Below are positions 12,536-63,121 of a stretch of DNA of 64,000 nt, one piece after another. The translations under genes and the position numbers were made by a program. Every line of letters starts with the position of its first letter. The first letter of the stretch is position 1. The notes beneath the pieces were generated by a model, which saw only the letters and a program-made list of their open reading frames with translations, did no database searches and was not told the DNA's origin. This DNA comes from a bacterium (GTDB taxonomy: Bacteria > Zhuqueibacterota > Zhuqueibacteria > Residuimicrobiales > Krinioviventaceae): contig CAXXFV010000029.1 of the NCBI GenBank assembly GCA_963674595.2, forward strand, positions 32,001-96,000. Reading direction: 5' to 3'.

Positions 12536-12747
12536 ACGCACCCAACCCAAAAACGCCGGATGTGAACCAACAGGAATATGATTATGTGATAAACGCAATC
12601 TCTTCCTCGTGTGTGTGTATGAATCCCATATCTGTGTGTGGAAAATCAGCAAGGACGCCAGGAACTCCCAGACTCGACCAAATTATCCTGTAAACTGTCC
12701 GTTATAGCTGATAAATTAATAATACAAATTAAATAAAATCAAGGCAA
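12536..12747 (-). ncRNA. promoter + leader/ncRNA module, reverse-strand copy N
   Basis: Reverse complement reads TTGCCT-17bp-TATTAT then ATCAGC..GGAC..CAGGA..TCCTG..GTCCTTGCTGAT..CACACGAGGAAGAGATTGCG..TAATCATATTCCTGTTGGTTCAC. Confidence 0.7.
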
Positions 12748-12934
12748 GAGGTTTTTGAAAAATATTAAAAATAATTGATGGCCCAAAAAAAGCAGAGACG
12801 CACGGCCGTGCATCTCTACCAATGTGCGTCCCCGCTCGCGGTATCAAAAGTTCTTGAGCTGACCCTTTGTGTTCTTTGTGCCCTTTGTGAGAGAATACCC
12901 CCCTGCACTATTTTCAACATTTCTCAAAAATTCC

Positions 12935-12963
12935 TTGCACCAATGACACAAAATTTGTAATAT
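12935..12963 (+). promoter_or_regulatory. repeated sigma70-type promoter (no RNA module) upstream of the satD-like gene
   Basis: TTGCAC-17bp-TAATAT with the CCCCTGCACTATTTTCAACATT upstream block seen in other copies. Confidence 0.7.
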
Positions 12964-12982
12964 AATTCCATACTATCCAATA

Positions 12983-13057
12983 TGAACCAATTAGGTTCAA
13001 ACCTCACACAATGAACCAATAAAGTTCAATTAATTGTATGTGAACAAAATAAGTACA
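12983..13057. promoter_or_regulatory. three palindromic operator-like boxes TGAAC-N7-GT(T/A)CA
   Basis: Boxes start at 12983, 13012 and 13041 (29-bp period). Confidence 0.6.
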
Positions 13058-13084
13058 GCAGTAATAAAGAGAATAGGTATAAAA

Positions 13085-58671: not shown

Positions 58672-59615
58672 AAACACGATCAATATTCCTGTTGCTCCCG
58701 CTGGTGCTGTTAACGGGCGTTTTGCTGTTTGCTGCGGATGTTCCCTATCTCACCGGACGCATCACGGACAACGCACAGCTTTTATCCCCGGAGGTCAGCC
58801 GGTCATTAACGGAAACCATGAAAGCGCATGAAGACCGCACCGGAAACCAGATCGCCGTGCTGACGGTCCCCACAATCGGAGACGAGAGCATTGAAGAATA
58901 TGCGTCCGAGGTTTTTGAAGCATGGAAACTCGGACAAAAAGGCCAAGATAACGGCCTTTTAATTGTGGTGGTCCCCAACGACCGGCGAATGCGCATTGAA
59001 GTAGGCTATGGCCTGGAGCCGATACTCACGGACGGCATGGCCGGGCAGATTATCCGCACGGAAATGACCCCCAAATTTAAAAACGGGGACTATAACAGCG
59101 GCATTGCTGACGGCGTTGGTGCTGTTATTCAGGTGCTTGAAGGCGGGGTGTTGCCAGAAGAAACGGTCGACAGCGGGTCTAAAAAATCATCCGGATTATT
59201 TCAGATGGAGGGGCCTGACCTTCCTATCAAAGAGCGTATTCTCATGGGGGCATTTATTTTCGGAATTATCGGATTATTTACGGCCATTGCCCTGTTCGGG
59301 GCCGGTATCGGCTGGTTTCTCTACTTTTTCCTCATACCGTTCTGGGCCACATTTCCGATTGTAATTTTGGGGTCCACCGGTGCGTTTTATCTGTTTCTCA
59401 CCTATCTGATCGGGTTCCCGGTGGCAAAGCTGTTTATACGAAAGACCGCCTGGTACAAAAAAGCGAATAAAAATTTGCGCACCAAAGGTCATACTTCCAT
59501 CGGCGGGTTCACGGTGCGGTCCGGCAGTTCCGGCGGATCGTGGTCATCAGGCGGATCAAGTTTTTCCGGCGGTGGAGGATCATCCGGAGGCGGCGGTGCG
59601 TCGGGAAGCTGGTAG
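58668..59615 (+). CDS. YgcG-like TPM-domain protein with Gly-rich tail
   Basis: RIEVGYGLE, FSGGGGSSGGGGASGSW. Confidence 0.92.
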   Translation: MKTRSIFLLLPLVLLTGVLLFAADVPYLTGRITDNAQLLSPEVSRSLTETMKAHEDRTGNQIAVLTVPTIGDESIEEYASEVFEAWKLGQKGQDNGLLIVVVPNDRRMRIEVGYGLEPILTDGMAGQIIRTEMTPKFKNGDYNSGIADGVGAVIQVLEGGVLPEETVDSGSKKSSGLFQMEGPDLPIKERILMGAFIFGIIGLFTAIALFGAGIGWFLYFFLIPFWATFPIVILGSTGAFYLFLTYLIGFPVAKLFIRKTAWYKKANKNLRTKGHTSIGGFTVRSGSSGGSWSSGGSSFSGGGGSSGGGGASGSW

Positions 59616-59906
59616 GTGACAAGATTTTACATAAATTTTGAAATATTCTCCCATTAATATCGGTTAACAAGTAAAAGAATGACAACCTTTGAAAATCAAT
59701 TAAAAAACCGGTTCTGATATATCGTTTTTATTCAAGCCGGGTCGGCACGTGTTTAGAAAAAAGATTATTGATTTGGGTCCATCCCGGAAAAAGTTGCCGC
59801 TTATTACTGAATAATGTTATAACATTTTAAGGAACACTGACACCGTAACACGTGTCAGGTTTCGAACGGCAGAAAAGGTGAATTGTTATAAACGATATTA
59901 ATTCTT

Positions 59907-60734
59907 TTGGGAGATTTTGATATGAAGCACAAGATAAAATACCTGTATTTTTTAATCGTTACAGCACTTGTTTTTCAATACTGTGCGACTGTCCCAGTCA
60001 CAGGAAGAAAACAGTTAAATCTGGTTCCTGCCTCTACCATGTTATCGATGAGTTTCCAGCAATATGCTGACTTTTTGGATTCCAACAAGGTGAGCCAAAA
60101 TCAGCAACAAACAGCGATGGTTAAACGGGTGGGCGCCAGAATTGAAAAGGCGGTGGAACAATATTTCATAGAAAAAAATATGGCGGATGAGCTTAAAAAT
60201 TACGCCTGGGAATTTAACCTCGTGGAGAGCAATGAAGTGAATGCCTGGTGTATGCCCGGCGGCAAGGTTGTGGTTTACACCGGAATTTTACCTGTCACCA
60301 AGGATGAATCAGGGTTAGCGGTAGTCATGGGACACGAAATTGCCCATGCCATTGCCGGACACGGGAATGAGCGCATGAGTCAGGGATTGCTGACAGAAAT
60401 GGGCGGTATGGCGCTGATGAAAGCGCTGGAACAAAAACCCGCACAGACTCAACAATTATGGCAGACTGCGTTTGGAGTTGGTGCTCAGTTTGGGGTCCTC
60501 CTCCCTTTTAGCCGGCTGCATGAAAGTGAGGCTGATCATCTGGGACTCATTTTTATGGCAATGGCCGGTTATGATCCCAATAAGGCAGTCGAGTTTTGGC
60601 AGCGAATGGCAGCGAATAGTTCAGGACAAAAACCGCCTGAATTTATGAGCACTCATCCATCGGATGAAACAAGAATTAGAAAGATACAAGCTGAACTGCC
60701 TGAAGCAATGAAATATTACAAAAAATCGGGCTGA
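59907..60734 (+). CDS. M48 family metallopeptidase
   Basis: NAWCMPGGK, HEIAH, ESEAD, STHP. Confidence 0.93.
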   Translation: MGDFDMKHKIKYLYFLIVTALVFQYCATVPVTGRKQLNLVPASTMLSMSFQQYADFLDSNKVSQNQQQTAMVKRVGARIEKAVEQYFIEKNMADELKNYAWEFNLVESNEVNAWCMPGGKVVVYTGILPVTKDESGLAVVMGHEIAHAIAGHGNERMSQGLLTEMGGMALMKALEQKPAQTQQLWQTAFGVGAQFGVLLPFSRLHESEADHLGLIFMAMAGYDPNKAVEFWQRMAANSSGQKPPEFMSTHPSDETRIRKIQAELPEAMKYYKKSG

Positions 60735-60946
60735 GAAATCAGCAATTTTATCTAAAACATAAAGTTGTCCGGAAGGACTTTTTAAAGCCGAATTTTATGG
60801 GCACTGTAACCTTGGGCAATTTAACGAAACCTTTTGTTTATTGAAATAACTGTCTGCAATATATCGTTAACATTTTAAGAAATTATAATTCTATATTTTT
60901 GATAATAGAAAAAACATGAGTTTCAACCAAGAAAAGGAGATAGATA

Positions 60947-63121
60947 ATGAGTGATATAAAGGCAAACACCGGAGGTAAATGTCCGGTGATGCACGGCAGC
61001 GTTACAAAAAGCGGCAATTCCAATATGGAATGGTGGCCCAAGGGACTTAATTTTGATATTCTGCACCAGCATGACAGCAAGACGAATCCCATGGATGCCG
61101 AATTCAACTATCGTGAAGCAGTCAAGCAGCTCGACTTTGCTTCGCTCAAAAAAGACCTGCTGGCATTAATGACAGACAGCCAGGACTGGTGGCCGGCAGA
61201 CTGGGGGCACTATGGCGGCCTGATGATCCGTATGTCCTGGCACGCGGCCGGCAGCTATCGTGTCGCTGATGGGCGTGGCGGTGCAGGCACCGGCAACCAG
61301 CGTTTTGCACCCCTAAATTCCTGGCCGGACAATGTCAATCTGGACAAGGCACGACGTCTGCTGTGGCCCATTAAGAAAAAATATGGCAACAAACTTAGCT
61401 GGGCCGACTTGATTGCCTACGCGGGTACAATGGCCTACGAGTCAATGGGATTAAAGACGTTTGGTTTCGGCTTTGGACGGGAAGATATCTGGCATCCTGA
61501 AAAAGACACCTACTGGGGTTCGGAAAAAGAGTGGCTGGCGCCCAGCGGCAGCGAAGGCAGCCGTTATTCCGGAGAGCGTGATCTGGAAAATCCACTGGCT
61601 GCGGTAATGATGGGGCTGATTTACGTCAATCCCGAAGGTGTTGACGGCAAACCTGATCCGCTCAAGACCGCACATGATGTACGTGTAACTTTTGCCCGTA
61701 TGGCCATGAACGATGAAGAAACCGTTGCACTCGCTGCCGGCGGGCACACGGTAGGTAAATGCCACGGTAATGGTGATGCTACGCTTCTGGGCCCGGAACC
61801 CGAAGGCGCCGATGTTGAAGAACAGGGATTGGGCTGGATGAATAAGACCAAGCGAGGCATAGGTCGTGATACTGTCAGCAGCGGTATTGAAGGCGCCTGG
61901 ACGACAAATCCGGTAAAGTGGGATAATGGATATTTTCACTTGCTTCTGAACTATGAATGGGAACTGAAAAAGAGCCCGGCTGGTGCATGGCAGTGGGAAC
62001 CGGTGAACATCAGGGAAGAAGACAAGCCTGTTGATGTTGAAGATCCATCAATCCGTTATAATCCGATTATGACCGATGCTGACATGGCAATGAAAATGGA
62101 CCCCGAGTATCGCAAGATATCCGAACGTTTTTACAAGGATTTTGACTACTTTTCCAAAGTTTTTGCACGTGCCTGGTTCAAGCTGACGCACCGTGACATG
62201 GGACCGAAAATTCGCTATATCGGCCCGGATGTGCCGCAGGAAGACCTGATCTGGCAAGATCCGGTGCCCGCCGGTAACACCAACTATAATGTGGACGAGG
62301 TTAAGGCAAAAATTTTGGCCGGCGGTCTCAGTATTAGCGAGATGGTCGCTACCGCATGGGACAGTGCCAGAACCTTCAGGGGTTCGGACAATCGCGGCGG
62401 TGCTAACGGGGCACGCATCCGCCTGGCCCCGCAAAAGGATTGGGAAGGCAATGAGCCTGCAAGGCTAGCCAAGGTATTATCCGTGCTTGAACCCATTGCA
62501 AGCAAAAGCAATGCAAGCCTGGCAGATGTCATCGTGCTGGCAGGAAACATTGGTATTGAGAAAGCAGCAAAGGCCGCCGGTTTTAATATCAGTGTTCCAT
62601 TCTCGCCCGGTCGCGGCGATGCAACGGAAGAACTGACCGATGTTGATTCTTTCGAGGTTTTGGAACCCCTCCATGACGGTTACCGTAACTGGCTGAAAAA
62701 GGACTATGTCGTTTCTGCTGAAGAATTAATGCTTGACCGCACGCAGCTTATGGGCCTGACCGCCAACGAGATGACTGTGTTGGTTGGCGGCATGCGCGTT
62801 CTGGGCACAAATCATGGCGGTACGAAACACGGTGTTTTTACAGAGCGGGAAGGCCTGCTGACGAATGATTTCTTTGTGAATTTGACTGATATGAGCTATA
62901 CGTGGAAGCCGACAGGAAATAACCTGTATGAAATCCGTGACCGCAAGACAGGCAAGGTCAAATGGACGGCGACACGGGTGGATCTTGTGTTCGGCTCCAA
63001 TTCGATCCTTCGTGCCTATGCCGAAGTTTATGCACAAGATGACAATAAGGAAAAGTTTGTGCGGGACTTTATCGCCGCATGGACAAAGGTGATGAACGCG
63101 GACCGCTTTGATTTGGTCTGA
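60947..63121 (+). CDS. katG: catalase-peroxidase
   Basis: [42 protein letters not shown]. Confidence 0.97.

Follow-up and report, generated by a model that had tools for sequence, protein, structure and literature searches.

Short extragenic hairpins that fall into several families and form mosaics and tandem clusters are familiar from the REP, BIME and REPIN elements and their RAYT (TnpA-REP) genes, and a RAYT gene that scores above the NCBIfam cut-off and has inverted copies of one family on its flanks recalls the REPtron (REPtron and BIME as defined in the accessible part of PMC6006769). Both features are present in the stretch of DNA analysed here (the window), 64,000 nt of the 249-kb contig C29 and ~1% of the 6.6-Mb MAG of an uncultured bacterium. 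The repeats here, however, occur almost only in a small number of islands that are variable and foreign in composition, whereas the accessible text of PMC3390384 describes the REPs of the Pseudomonas fluorescens group as markers of the old, stable genome, with mobile or strain-specific DNA located in "REP deserts"; in addition, most copies here are single hairpins co-oriented with the genes rather than inverted doublets, and copy numbers are low (13-48 per family). Putative mobile promoters, or promoter re-use, as defined by Nijveen, Matus-Garcia and van Passel 2012 (PMC3575422), are highly similar upstream sequences found before non-paralogous genes of one genome. A module of this type, which we call M, differs from them in its very large family (113 copies), in its length (~235 nt, including a leader of ~155-175 nt), in being clustered in islands where it follows a fixed grammar with REP elements, and in not having been found in 60 relatives searched with a covariance model.

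Integrons and the sedentary chromosomal "superintegrons" also contain co-oriented unrelated genes, many of them accessory, with repeats at gene 3' ends, toxin-antitoxin units and a content that differs between strains, but here there is no adjacent IntI and there are no attC-like sites, many units have a putative promoter of their own where integrons rely on a single Pc, and multi-gene operons and housekeeping-type genes are among the units. Defence systems cluster in "defence islands", and several lie side by side here as in such accessory-gene hotspots; defence genes are nevertheless a minority in this locus, and stitching by a shared promoter-like module and REP elements lies outside the defence-island concept. 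The rAID-1 (recombinase-associated acquired interbacterial defence) clusters of Bacteroidales, described as reminiscent of integrons in the accessible part of bioRxiv 10.1101/471110, are co-oriented and have skewed GC and repetitive intergenic sequences, and Imm26-like and DUF4304 genes occur here as well; as far as that part goes, rAID-1 clusters have a conserved XerD-family recombinase at their head and contain mainly immunity genes, whereas here no recombinase was found on the contig and only 2 of about 40 genes are immunity-like. We consider it reasonably probable that the window covers part of a strain-variable chromosomal island stitched together by REP/BIME-like repeats and a mobile promoter.

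Unrelated genes in a co-oriented array

13034..63121, + strand, co-oriented array of ~40 genes in roughly 23 units set apart by spacers
12560..12772, - strand, full M module (nhmmer 183 bits); the next minus-strand gene is 10982-12025
12910..12966, + strand, promoter-only M, 68 nt upstream of the first array gene (13034)

A crude gene call from ORFs and codon scores places every gene between 13034 and 63121 on the + strand, in agreement with an earlier note on this DNA that had counted 41 (we find 41-42, or 40 once one spurious minus-strand ORF inside repeats is removed). That note had also placed back-to-back promoter copies at the strand switch, and a full M on the minus strand indeed faces a promoter-only M on the plus strand there. 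Pfam, PADLOC and NCBIfam agree with its view that the genes are functionally unrelated: they include a SatD-like pair, an OMP beta-barrel, three HigB(Gp49)/HTH pairs, Schlafen-AlbA_2 (a protein with a TIR-effector-like tail), Dcm-Vsr-EcoRII, NamZ, GxGYxYP, GFA, tocopherol-cyclase/UbiA, a DEAD-box helicase, TonB, an LVIVD sorting-domain protein, RDD, dUTPase, hsdR-S-M, sulfatase, Imm26, DUF4304, RelA/SpoT-like, FGE-sulfatase, GmrSD, TPM proteins, LigB, an M48 peptidase and KatG. The defence genes among them are Dcm-Vsr-EcoRII, the type I restriction-modification genes, GmrSD (HEC-05, 781 bits), the Schlafen-AlbA_2 protein and the HigB-like toxins, and the helicase, dUTPase and KatG are of housekeeping, non-accessory type.

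The alternating base composition that had been claimed is borne out. Gene GC ranges from 0.22 to 0.54 (SD 0.093), a spread equalled in just 0.18% of 3871 sliding 36-gene sets genome-wide, and the mean GC step between neighbouring genes is 0.103 in the array and 0.039 in the genome as a whole. Many of the array genes probably arrived by horizontal transfer. Co-orientation, on the other hand, is not peculiar to this region: 84.6% of 5109 adjacent gene pairs in the genome are on the same strand, and there are 12 same-strand runs of at least 40 genes, the longest of 117, with the array run ranking about 14th. Replication bias, against which the earlier note had proposed that co-orientation be checked, does not explain it either, as GC skew simply tracks gene strand and flips several times inside the contig.

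Spacers, hairpin repeats and module M

The spacers were said to be mostly 0.3-1.5 kb long and built from the same parts. The shared parts are real (of 21 spacers that are 200 nt or longer, 16 carry repeat families), but the prevalence was overstated, since only 16 of 39 reach at least 300 nt; the remainder, -23 to 291 nt, resemble the gaps within operons. The parts follow a fixed order, E/C, D, B, A, F, M and then the gene. In the window the six hairpin families reach 20 to 65 times their genome-wide density:

Family A, 23 copies in the genome, 15 in the window
Family B, 36 copies in the genome, 11 in the window
Family C, 41 copies in the genome, 11 in the window
Family D, 42 copies in the genome, 8 in the window
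Family E, 48 copies in the genome, 13 in the window
Family F, 13 copies in the genome, 4 in the window

A fuzzy-match re-count of the core motifs gives window/genome figures of 14/16 for A, 11/35 for B, 11/31 for C, 4/13 for D and 2/4 for E, among which the window shares alone are free of circularity, the "island" limits of this re-count having been drawn from the same repeat hits. All families but F fold into hairpins (-6 to -30 kcal/mol), and in family E the terminal stem is followed by TTTTAA. The repeats are strongly co-oriented with the genes (+/- counts in the window of 15/0 for A, 10/1 for C and 9/2 for B), and C and E hairpins are placed just 3' of stop codons.

28263..29380, + strand, tandem mosaic of A and B hairpins, period about 124 nt, with an M module at its end
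39062..39117, + strand, E element 13 nt past a stop codon, two hairpins, the second followed by TTTTAA
8576..9121, - strand, RAYT (REP-associated tyrosine transposase), 181 aa (NF047646, 102.2 bits, cut-off 80)
8522..8578, + strand, E hairpin on one RAYT flank
9146..9200, - strand, inverted E partner on the other RAYT flank

The E element at 39062 looks like a terminator, and E elements likewise lie just after stop codons at 56187-56243 and 63131-63187. Minus-strand ORFs within the 28263..29380 mosaic are spurious. The RAYT gene and its inverted E flanks form what appears to be a REPtron-like arrangement; the genome has three more RAYT paralogues, those inside islands being the one in the window and those at C29:188857 and C26:87966, and E is the only family seen on the flanks of a RAYT gene.

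The conserved block of module M, with its ~235 nt, has sharp ends; in it an A-tract, TTGC, 17-18 nt and TGTAnTAT are fused to the leader. The genome has its 113 copies (E <= 1e-3) on 23 contigs; 13 are in the window, a density of 203 per Mb where the whole genome has 17 per Mb. Besides the two at the strand switch these are:

14598..14815, + strand, full M
3670-3884, 16505-16722, 17599-17802, 18939-19150, 29339-29551, 36498-36715, 41228-41435 and 54094-54301, other full M copies
40525-40579 and 56893-56983, partial M copies

The hairpins are thus local and M is more widespread yet clustered, which answers the question raised earlier of whether module density is local or genome-wide. As had been claimed, M points towards the gene that follows: for 109 of the 113 copies the first downstream gene shares the strand of M, with a median distance of 157 nt, and only one copy lies inside a called gene. 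Copies that are 95-98% identical over 66 nt precede the OMP gene, the HigB-like genes and the Schlafen-like gene. From the conserved TTGC-N17/18-TGTAnTAT layout and its position, we infer that M is a sigma-70-like promoter unit. A scan for E. coli-type promoters found 50 against 41.1 +/- 7.5 in shuffles, no enrichment for the E. coli consensus, and the "promoter" label therefore rests on layout and position. The leader is predicted to form two hairpins. RNAalifold on 50 leader copies returned no consensus structure (0 pairs); in the proposed structure, which was derived from the same consensus, 84.4% of cells are paired (82.3 +/- 0.4 when shuffled), double changes occur in 42 cells (25.6 +/- 4.3 in shuffles), and the 13 pairs with double changes are a count reached in 34 of 500 shuffles. 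Support for this structure is modest.

Gene order in relatives and block variation between samples

Thirty relatives, all of other genera, do not share the gene order of the window, although ordinary divergence could account for part of this loss of synteny, since the set offers no relative closer than another genus. In loci taken around the helicase gene in 10 relatives, the helicase itself is found in all 10, and none of the other 51 window proteins accompanies it in these loci, apart from sorting-domain-level matches to the proteins at 9287-10429 and 36917-39049 in two of them. DNA matches to window genes are instead scattered across the relatives' genomes (in G009, at C2:0.62 Mb, C5:1.70 Mb, C5:2.19 Mb and C1:0.36 Mb). 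A neighbouring control region, C29:128-148 kb, has collinear matches in 31 of 31 genomes, for example seven segments in query order in G001:C371. Eighty metagenome loci with a relative of the helicase (up to 80% identity) contain no copies of M or of A, C, D, E or F. The earlier note had held that conserved gene order in relatives and equally dense repeats across the chromosome would speak against its proposal; neither was found.

Strains were compared through short metagenome contigs from other samples, aligned at a likeness of at least 90%, in which whole gene blocks are missing and a joint lies at a C repeat; here repeats coincide with rearrangement, again in line with what had been proposed.

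41116..41163, + strand, C hairpin, left boundary of the block
41164..47086, + strand, strain-variable block (A fragment, M, hsdR, hsdS and hsdM), skipped in X4 contigs and in a minor form in X1
47087..47134, + strand, C hairpin, right boundary, 5971 nt past its left partner
34844..35285, + strand, spacer block L (C-B-A-C), duplicated at 39754-40167 with 90.7% identity
36159..36554, + strand, spacer block R (B-A-F and the M promoter), duplicated at 40183-40580 with 96.5% identity

In contig 21 of sample X4 (2679 nt), 40298-41169 is joined to 47168-48000, so that dUTPase passes to sulfatase at the C repeat without M and hsdRSM. One contig of X1 joins 41165 to 47083, and an X1 contig without the hsdRSM block has two C copies 13 letters apart. 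LVIVD and RDD have next to no depth in X4, and the same is true of GFA, the cyclase, UbiA and hsdRSM in X3. The TonB gene (35321-36127) lies between L and R, the second L/R pair is just 15 nt apart (40168-40182), and TonB is a clean insertion or deletion between these duplicated blocks.

Could RAYT proteins themselves have moved such blocks? Y1 transposases work on single-stranded DNA at subterminal hairpins lying on the same strand, according to the accessible part of PMC6006769, and blocks bounded by same-strand REP hairpins might be cut out and inserted as single strands by these Y1 (HUH) enzymes in the IS200/IS605 manner, making a non-integron platform for gene capture. RAYT genes do sit within islands, the hairpins have the strong orientation noted above, and the hsdRSM block lies between direct C hairpins, both of which are present in the block-less X1 contig. 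We nonetheless find this unlikely, as the hairpins at the two ends of a block do not match in any case, the TonB junctions lack a hairpin, only E is seen flanking a RAYT gene, and recombination between the 26-nt identical cores that C copies share explains the single-C joint equally well.

Quite improbable is an artefact, either a chimeric join of unrelated bin pieces at repeats that they share or contamination (5.06% by the rating of the bin). Because contigs of the samples break at repeats, those of the probable source run at every long one, block order across the 300-440-nt repeats rests on the original assembler; X1 has two alternative joins at the C repeat, and some joints at repeats may be repeat artefacts. 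Mis-joins at direct repeats, however, would alter block order and leave the parts list and orientation as they are. The X1 pieces over 29.3-48 kb have no differing letters and similar depth (2.9-5.3), X1 record 8 spans hsdM, C and the start of sulfatase without a break, M copies and RAYT paralogues connect C29 with many further contigs in the bin, and a core region of the same contig is syntenic with relatives.

Origin of the array

Long same-strand runs and the spread of M over 23 contigs might suggest nothing special, replication bias giving the co-orientation and the repeats being a normal genomic REP load, but this is very improbable given the behaviour of GC skew, the local hairpin density, the extreme GC heterogeneity, the loss of synteny in the window beside a conserved control region, and the blocks that differ between samples. 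Scarcely credible is a true chromosomal integron or CALIN (an attC cluster without integrase) whose cassettes the genome's IntI captures at attC-type sites hidden among the hairpins: one genuine IntI exists (C3:115823-116767, TIGR02249, 453.7 bits, cut-off 265) with an M module directly upstream, the array is co-oriented, mosaic and strain-variable, and the C/E hairpins follow stop codons as attC sites do, but that IntI is on another contig with a CRISPR array nearby and nothing like a cassette array beside it, the genome's 8 tyrosine-recombinase matches all lie on contigs other than C29, many array units bring their own promoter module, and by a home-made heuristic built on an attC consensus none of 16 RYYYAAC...GTTRRRY candidates in the window folds as a hairpin and the 61 hairpin-like candidates genome-wide are scattered singletons without a cluster, many being one site on both strands. 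The superintegron-like platform of the earlier note thus survives in its compositionally varied, unrelated genes and promoter-like spacers and fails because no tyrosine recombinase was found on the contig and no attC-like site in the window; the outcome, a co-oriented and changeable array, is integron-like, but the island is no integron.

In the stitched island that we favour, genes and small operons that differ widely in base composition lie head to tail, with a cargo of restriction-modification, GmrSD, toxin-antitoxin pairs, immunity-like and secreted proteins and a few housekeeping-type genes. Two lineage-specific kinds of repeat, the REP-type hairpins in BIME-like mosaics and module M, would do the stitching: M would supply transcription to each unit, C/E hairpins right after stop codons would act as terminators or insulators, and homologous or slipped recombination, possibly with RAYT action, would use the repeats to add, remove and duplicate gene blocks. 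One unit of the array is tandemly duplicated, and the order C, M and then gene is also found on contigs C13 and C26.

16793..17092 (start), + strand, duplicated unit of M, HigB-like toxin with HTH antitoxin, and C; 99% identical to 18129-18428

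Gene content and orientation of the array

The anatomy of the array between 13034 and 63121, the local density of its repeats, the loss of its synteny in relatives and the differences between strains fit a flexible island whose blocks of genes are each framed by lineage-specific hairpins of REP type and a propagated promoter-leader unit. The genome bin comprises 37 contigs (6.62 Mb) and is rated 97.6% complete and 5.1% contaminated; contig C29, which carries the array, is 248,599 nt long, and the window is its bases 32001-96000. Genes were called crudely, by scoring long ORFs on codon usage and removing overlaps greedily. 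All the genes from 13034 to 63121 lie on the plus strand, as the earlier note had it (the sole exception is an 84-aa minus-strand ORF within repeats), and Pfam, PADLOC and NCBIfam-type profile matches bear out its view that their functions are unrelated.

Genes of the array (13034-63121, plus strand), named by profile matches
SatD-like pair, outer-membrane barrel, three HigB(Gp49)/HTH pairs
15770-16431: the third, diverged HigB-like/HTH pair
16870-17504 and 18206-18840: tandem of two HigB-like (Gp49) toxin/HTH antitoxin pairs with 99% identity over 300 nt
Schlafen-AlbA_2, Dcm-Vsr-EcoRII, NamZ, GxGYxYP, GFA, tocopherol cyclase and UbiA
DEAD-box helicase, TonB, LVIVD sorting-domain protein, RDD, dUTPase, hsdR-S-M
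sulfatase, Imm26, DUF4304, RelA/SpoT-like protein
Array end: FGE-sulfatase, GmrSD (PADLOC HEC-05, 781 bits), TPM proteins, LigB, M48 peptidase, KatG

Por_Secre_tail sorting domains are present on several of the proteins (Pfam scan). The C-terminal 85 residues of the Schlafen-AlbA_2 protein (19386-20261) match the PADLOC TIR "Effector" profile (E 1.4e-12), and judged from this sequence match the gene may belong to defence. The RelA/SpoT-domain protein (50563-51546, 327 aa) weakly matches the PADLOC candidate PDC-S33; its gene stands between two family C hairpins, directly after the Imm26-like and DUF4304 genes.

The base composition of the array genes is as uneven as had been claimed, with GC from 0.22 to 0.54 and an SD of 0.093 against a genome median SD of 0.0355, a spread matched by 0.18% of 3871 sliding sets of 36 consecutive genes genome-wide. 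The co-orientation, on the other hand, which had been taken as a mark of the array, is not special: 84.6% of the 5109 adjacent gene pairs in the genome share a strand, 19 same-strand runs have at least 30 genes and 12 have at least 40, the run of the array ranks about 14th, and the longest (117 genes, 135 kb) lies in a stretch without any copy of the promoter-leader module. Since co-orientation is common genome-wide, it cannot serve as evidence for a special platform. Replication bias is rejected as its cause; the proposed comparison with GC skew gave a skew that does track gene strand along C29, but it flips with gene strand repeatedly within this one contig (at about 20, 120 and 180 kb) and so lends replication no support.

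Spacers, hairpin families and the promoter-leader module

The 39 spacers between array genes have a median length of 219 nt, against 51 nt genome-wide. That they are built from common repeat parts holds, and 16 of the 21 spacers of at least 200 nt contain one or more repeat families; the description of them as mostly 0.3-1.5 kb long was too strong, as only 16 of the 39 reach 300 nt. The parts come in a fixed order, as had been noticed, with hairpins behind the stop codon and then promoter and leader ahead of the next gene: family E or C stands right behind the stop codon, followed by D, B, A, F, the module (M) and the gene. Both tandem HigB-like/HTH pairs, for example, have M before them and a family C hairpin after them, and the strand switch at 12.5-13.0 kb does coincide with a full M on the minus strand facing a promoter-only M on the plus strand.

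Copies of the repeat families (profile searches, one threshold)
Family A: 23 in the genome, 15 in the window
Family B: 36 in the genome, 11 in the window
Family C: 41 in the genome, 11 in the window
Family D: 42 in the genome, 8 in the window
Family E: 48 in the genome, 13 in the window
Family F: 13 in the genome, 4 in the window

The window is 1% of the genome, so the density of the hairpin families is local, the outcome that the earlier note had needed. An independent fuzzy-match count of core motifs puts 14 of 16 copies of A, 11 of 35 of B, 11 of 31 of C, 4 of 13 of D and 2 of 4 of E in the window. Copies outside it cluster in C29:1-120 kb, all of C13, parts of C26 and C18:80-120 kb; we rely on the window shares because counts of copies "in islands" are circular, the island limits having been drawn from the same repeat matches. 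The hairpins of families A-E have folding energies of -6.3 to -30 kcal/mol, and no family has more than one copy within a called gene. The order of family C hairpin, M and gene recurs on C13 and C26, whose gene content is similar (20 of 33 proteins lack a Pfam match, and there are also a TIR effector, ankyrin repeats and a transposase). A 513-aa DDE_Tnp_1_6 transposase is present in two copies with identical Pfam scores, at C29:1463-3004 (near the contig start) and C13:76525-78066. The contigs may break at copies of this IS, so in the actual chromosome the islands of C29, C13 and C26 could be continuous with one another. At the left of the window (1-8411), six of the seven plus-strand proteins scanned upstream of the transposase gene described below lack a Pfam match, including one of 662 aa; this stretch also contains an M copy (3670-3884) and D hairpins, and the island thus reaches left of its reported start.

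One spacer records a change of gene content. The RDD-dUTPase spacer equals the pre-TonB spacer (90.7% identity over 442 nt) joined to the post-TonB spacer (96.5% over 398 nt), with 15 nt where the TonB gene would stand; between spacer blocks common to both places, then, a stretch the size of a gene has been inserted or deleted.

M was found in 113 copies on 23 contigs (nhmmer, whole genome, E <= 1e-3), 25 of them on C29 and 13 in the window; the 12 inside 12.5-63.1 kb are promoter-like and each is directed at the next gene. The downstream neighbour is on the same strand in 109 of the 113, at a median distance of 157 nt, and just one is placed within a called gene. When 70 near-full copies were aligned together with 150-nt flanks, a sharply bounded conserved block of about 235 nt stood out, laid out as an A-tract, TTGC, 17-18 nt, TGTAnTAT and a leader; the 66-nt promoter cores before the OMP-barrel, HigB-like and Schlafen-like genes are 95-98% identical. 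We infer that M serves as a promoter, that families C and E work as insulators or terminators, and that the repeats are what recombination acts on.

RNAalifold found no consensus structure in a 50-copy leader alignment, nor did ViennaRNA in the whole module; the leader by itself, with RIBOSUM scoring, gave a weak one (-12.9). A structure named from the leader consensus (a three-part long hairpin and a second hairpin, 27 pairs) has 84.4% of its cells paired, compared with 82.3 +/- 0.4 after shuffling and 34-48% after sliding, and 42 double-change cells against 25.6 +/- 4.3; double changes occur in 13 of its pairs, and 34 of 500 shuffles attained that number. Support for this predicted fold is modest, and is weakened by its derivation from the same sequences. 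Rfam gave no match at the gathering score and five at E <= 1 (chance level), none on an M copy, and the window contains no tRNA or tmRNA. An exact 18-letter M motif had 90 single matches among species-representative genomes, in unrelated taxa and with no genome having several, which is about chance by our own estimate and a weak test, as exact patterns pick up no more than 6-11 of the 113 copies when run on the genome of origin. A covariance model of the leader scored 45 matches in that genome and none in 60 relatives, which belong to other genera, families and classes (searched with stricter filters; 14 of the 60 are <90% complete). When window DNA that includes M and the hairpins served as query, 30 relatives had no M copy, and four of them had a few 25-35-nt matches to the hairpins. 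Because its leader was found in none of these relatives and has no Rfam match, M is a young, lineage-specific, propagated unit, and not an old regulatory RNA family.

A gene for a REP-associated tyrosine transposase (RAYT) lies to the left of the array, between inverted family E copies:

8522-8578, plus strand: family E copy
8576-9121, minus strand: RAYT gene (NF047646, 102.2 bits against a cut-off of 80)
9146-9200, minus strand: family E copy

A RAYT gene with inverted flanking REP copies is the arrangement that passages of PMC6006769 call a "REPtron"; a conserved GTAG or CGTC tag at the foot of the REP hairpin is described in PMC3733652. There are paralogues at C29:188857, beside which no flanking REP copies were found, at C26:87966 and, distantly, at C23:97891. 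The C26 paralogue (87966-88496) is 48% identical to that of the window, contains a TAG in frame and may be decaying.

Gene order in relatives and in other samples

The comparison genomes were the 30 nearest relatives, all of other genera. Conserved gene order would have spoken against the shuffling proposed earlier, and it is not conserved: in 10 relatives the helicase gene is not accompanied within about 10 kb by any other window protein, except for matches of two window proteins at the level of the sorting domain at two loci. In G009, a relative assembled in five contigs, DNA matches to window genes are scattered (C2:0.62 Mb, C5:1.70 Mb, C5:2.19 Mb and C1:0.36 Mb), with hsdR-S-M kept together at C5:2.19 Mb. 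All 31 of 31 genomes have matches to a control stretch, C29:128-148 kb, and many keep it collinear; on G001:C371 the query order is preserved by seven segments over 10.6 kb. In 80 metagenome loci with a relative of the helicase (best 80% identity), M and families A, C, D, E and F are absent, family B has two weak matches, and none of the window's helicase-adjacent genes is present; KatG fragments occur in two of these loci and a distant sulfatase in one.

Public metagenome runs from other studies contain 11-38% of sampled words of 33-43 kb, and their contigs were compared with 28-48 kb at >=90% likeness. These contigs are short and break at repeats, and run X9, which covers most of the stretch thinly, was left out of account. 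Run X4 covers GFA to TonB, dUTPase and sulfatase, with depth near nil on LVIVD-RDD and hsdRSM. Its contig 21 (2679 nt) passes directly from 40298-41169 to 47168-48000, the two parts differing in 28 and 33 letters, and so bridges dUTPase and sulfatase without the A fragment, M and hsdR-S-M; the unit skipped is bounded by direct family C copies at 41116 and 47087. A contig of X1, probably the source sample, joins 41165 to 47083 with 13 other letters, leaving two family C copies side by side and the hsdRSM block absent. X3 covers the helicase and LVIVD-RDD, and neither GFA-cyclase-UbiA nor hsdRSM; its helicase contig continues for 1655 nt unlike the window. Such whole-block differences between related strains fall at the repeats. 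Contigs of the source run break at every long repeat, so the block order in the assembled contig lacks independent confirmation. In X3 the A-family stretch upstream of the helicase (window 32942-33140) is about 110 nt shorter (87 against 198 letters), which suggests that a unit of about 124 nt varies in copy number between strains.

Relation to known systems

The closest kinds to this island are the REP/BIME/RAYT systems and putative mobile promoters; the literature searched, a thin basis for claiming absence, contained no published description of this particular arrangement. Extragenic hairpin repeats are common to the REP/BIME systems with RAYT and to the island, where copy numbers are modest (13-48). 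In those systems the RAYT cuts its REP and joins it again. Putative mobile promoters are defined as sequences of 50 nt or more, at least 80% identical, that precede genes with non-paralogous coding parts (PMC3575422), and the M promoter cores have such identity and length. REP elements and re-used promoters are usually viewed as scattered in the stable genome, whereas here they are concentrated in its changeable part. The unusual point is this: in the Pseudomonas fluorescens group, according to passages of PMC3390384, it is the stable genome that REPs mark, mobile DNA being found in REP deserts, and here REPs mark the variable genome.

We consider it quite unlikely that the islands are a platform for gene capture and expression, doing the integron's job with other parts (movement by REP and RAYT, switching on by M). 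Gene blocks would then be moved as single strands by means of same-strand REP hairpins and the islands' own Y1 (HUH) RAYT transposases, the lineage-specific promoter-plus-leader cassette would switch each newcomer on, and possibly one common regulator would read the shared leader. Should it be the repeats that cause foreign genes to be gained, lost and expressed, an integron-like outcome would have a second route that needs no integrase, and there would be a handle on how newly acquired genes come to be transcribed and on what RAYTs are for; if not, M is still a clean case of large-scale promoter propagation in an uncultured lineage.

The rAID-1 clusters (10.1101/471110) have repetitive spacers and skewed GC in common with the array. 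They are, however, defined by a recombinase and immunity genes: a conserved XerD-family recombinase heads a cluster mainly of immunity genes, whereas two of 48 scanned window proteins (Imm26 and DUF4304) are of this kind and C29 has no tyrosine recombinase match (PF00589, with 8 matches elsewhere in the genome).

The superintegron-like platform of the earlier note is not borne out, as there is no IntI beside the array and no attC-like site was found in the window. The only TIGR02249 match above cut-off is at C3:115823-116767 (453.7 bits), with an M copy immediately upstream and a CRISPR array 4 kb off, which accounts for the gene-free gap nearby; no cassette or attC array was seen beside it, nor any inverted repeat within 200 nt. 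attC sites are imperfect palindromes bounded by RYYYAAC and GTTRRRY, at the 3' ends of cassettes. A heuristic based on the core consensus and hairpin folding gave 16 candidates in the window, none hairpin-like, and 378 genome-wide, of which 61 were hairpin-like, scattered singletons that form no cluster. Integron content varies among close strains, and the array likewise lacks whole blocks in other samples; integron cassettes, however, are mostly promoterless and served by one Pc, whereas the array has 12 M copies, predicted promoters aimed at the next genes. In the island flanks (C29:1-32 kb and 96-128 kb) Pfam scans found DDE and rve/IS3-type transposases and no site-specific recombinase. 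A plasmid or conjugative element is rejected, as 129 proteins scanned from C29, C13 and C26 include no products of conjugation or site-specific recombination genes and C29 also bears a core region syntenic with relatives.

The CRISPR array on C3 (108300-111900; 4300-7900 of the extracted locus L001) has about 50 units with a 37-nt repeat. One run of its spacers occurs twice (for example starting near 4727 and 6137 of that locus), so part of the array has been duplicated.
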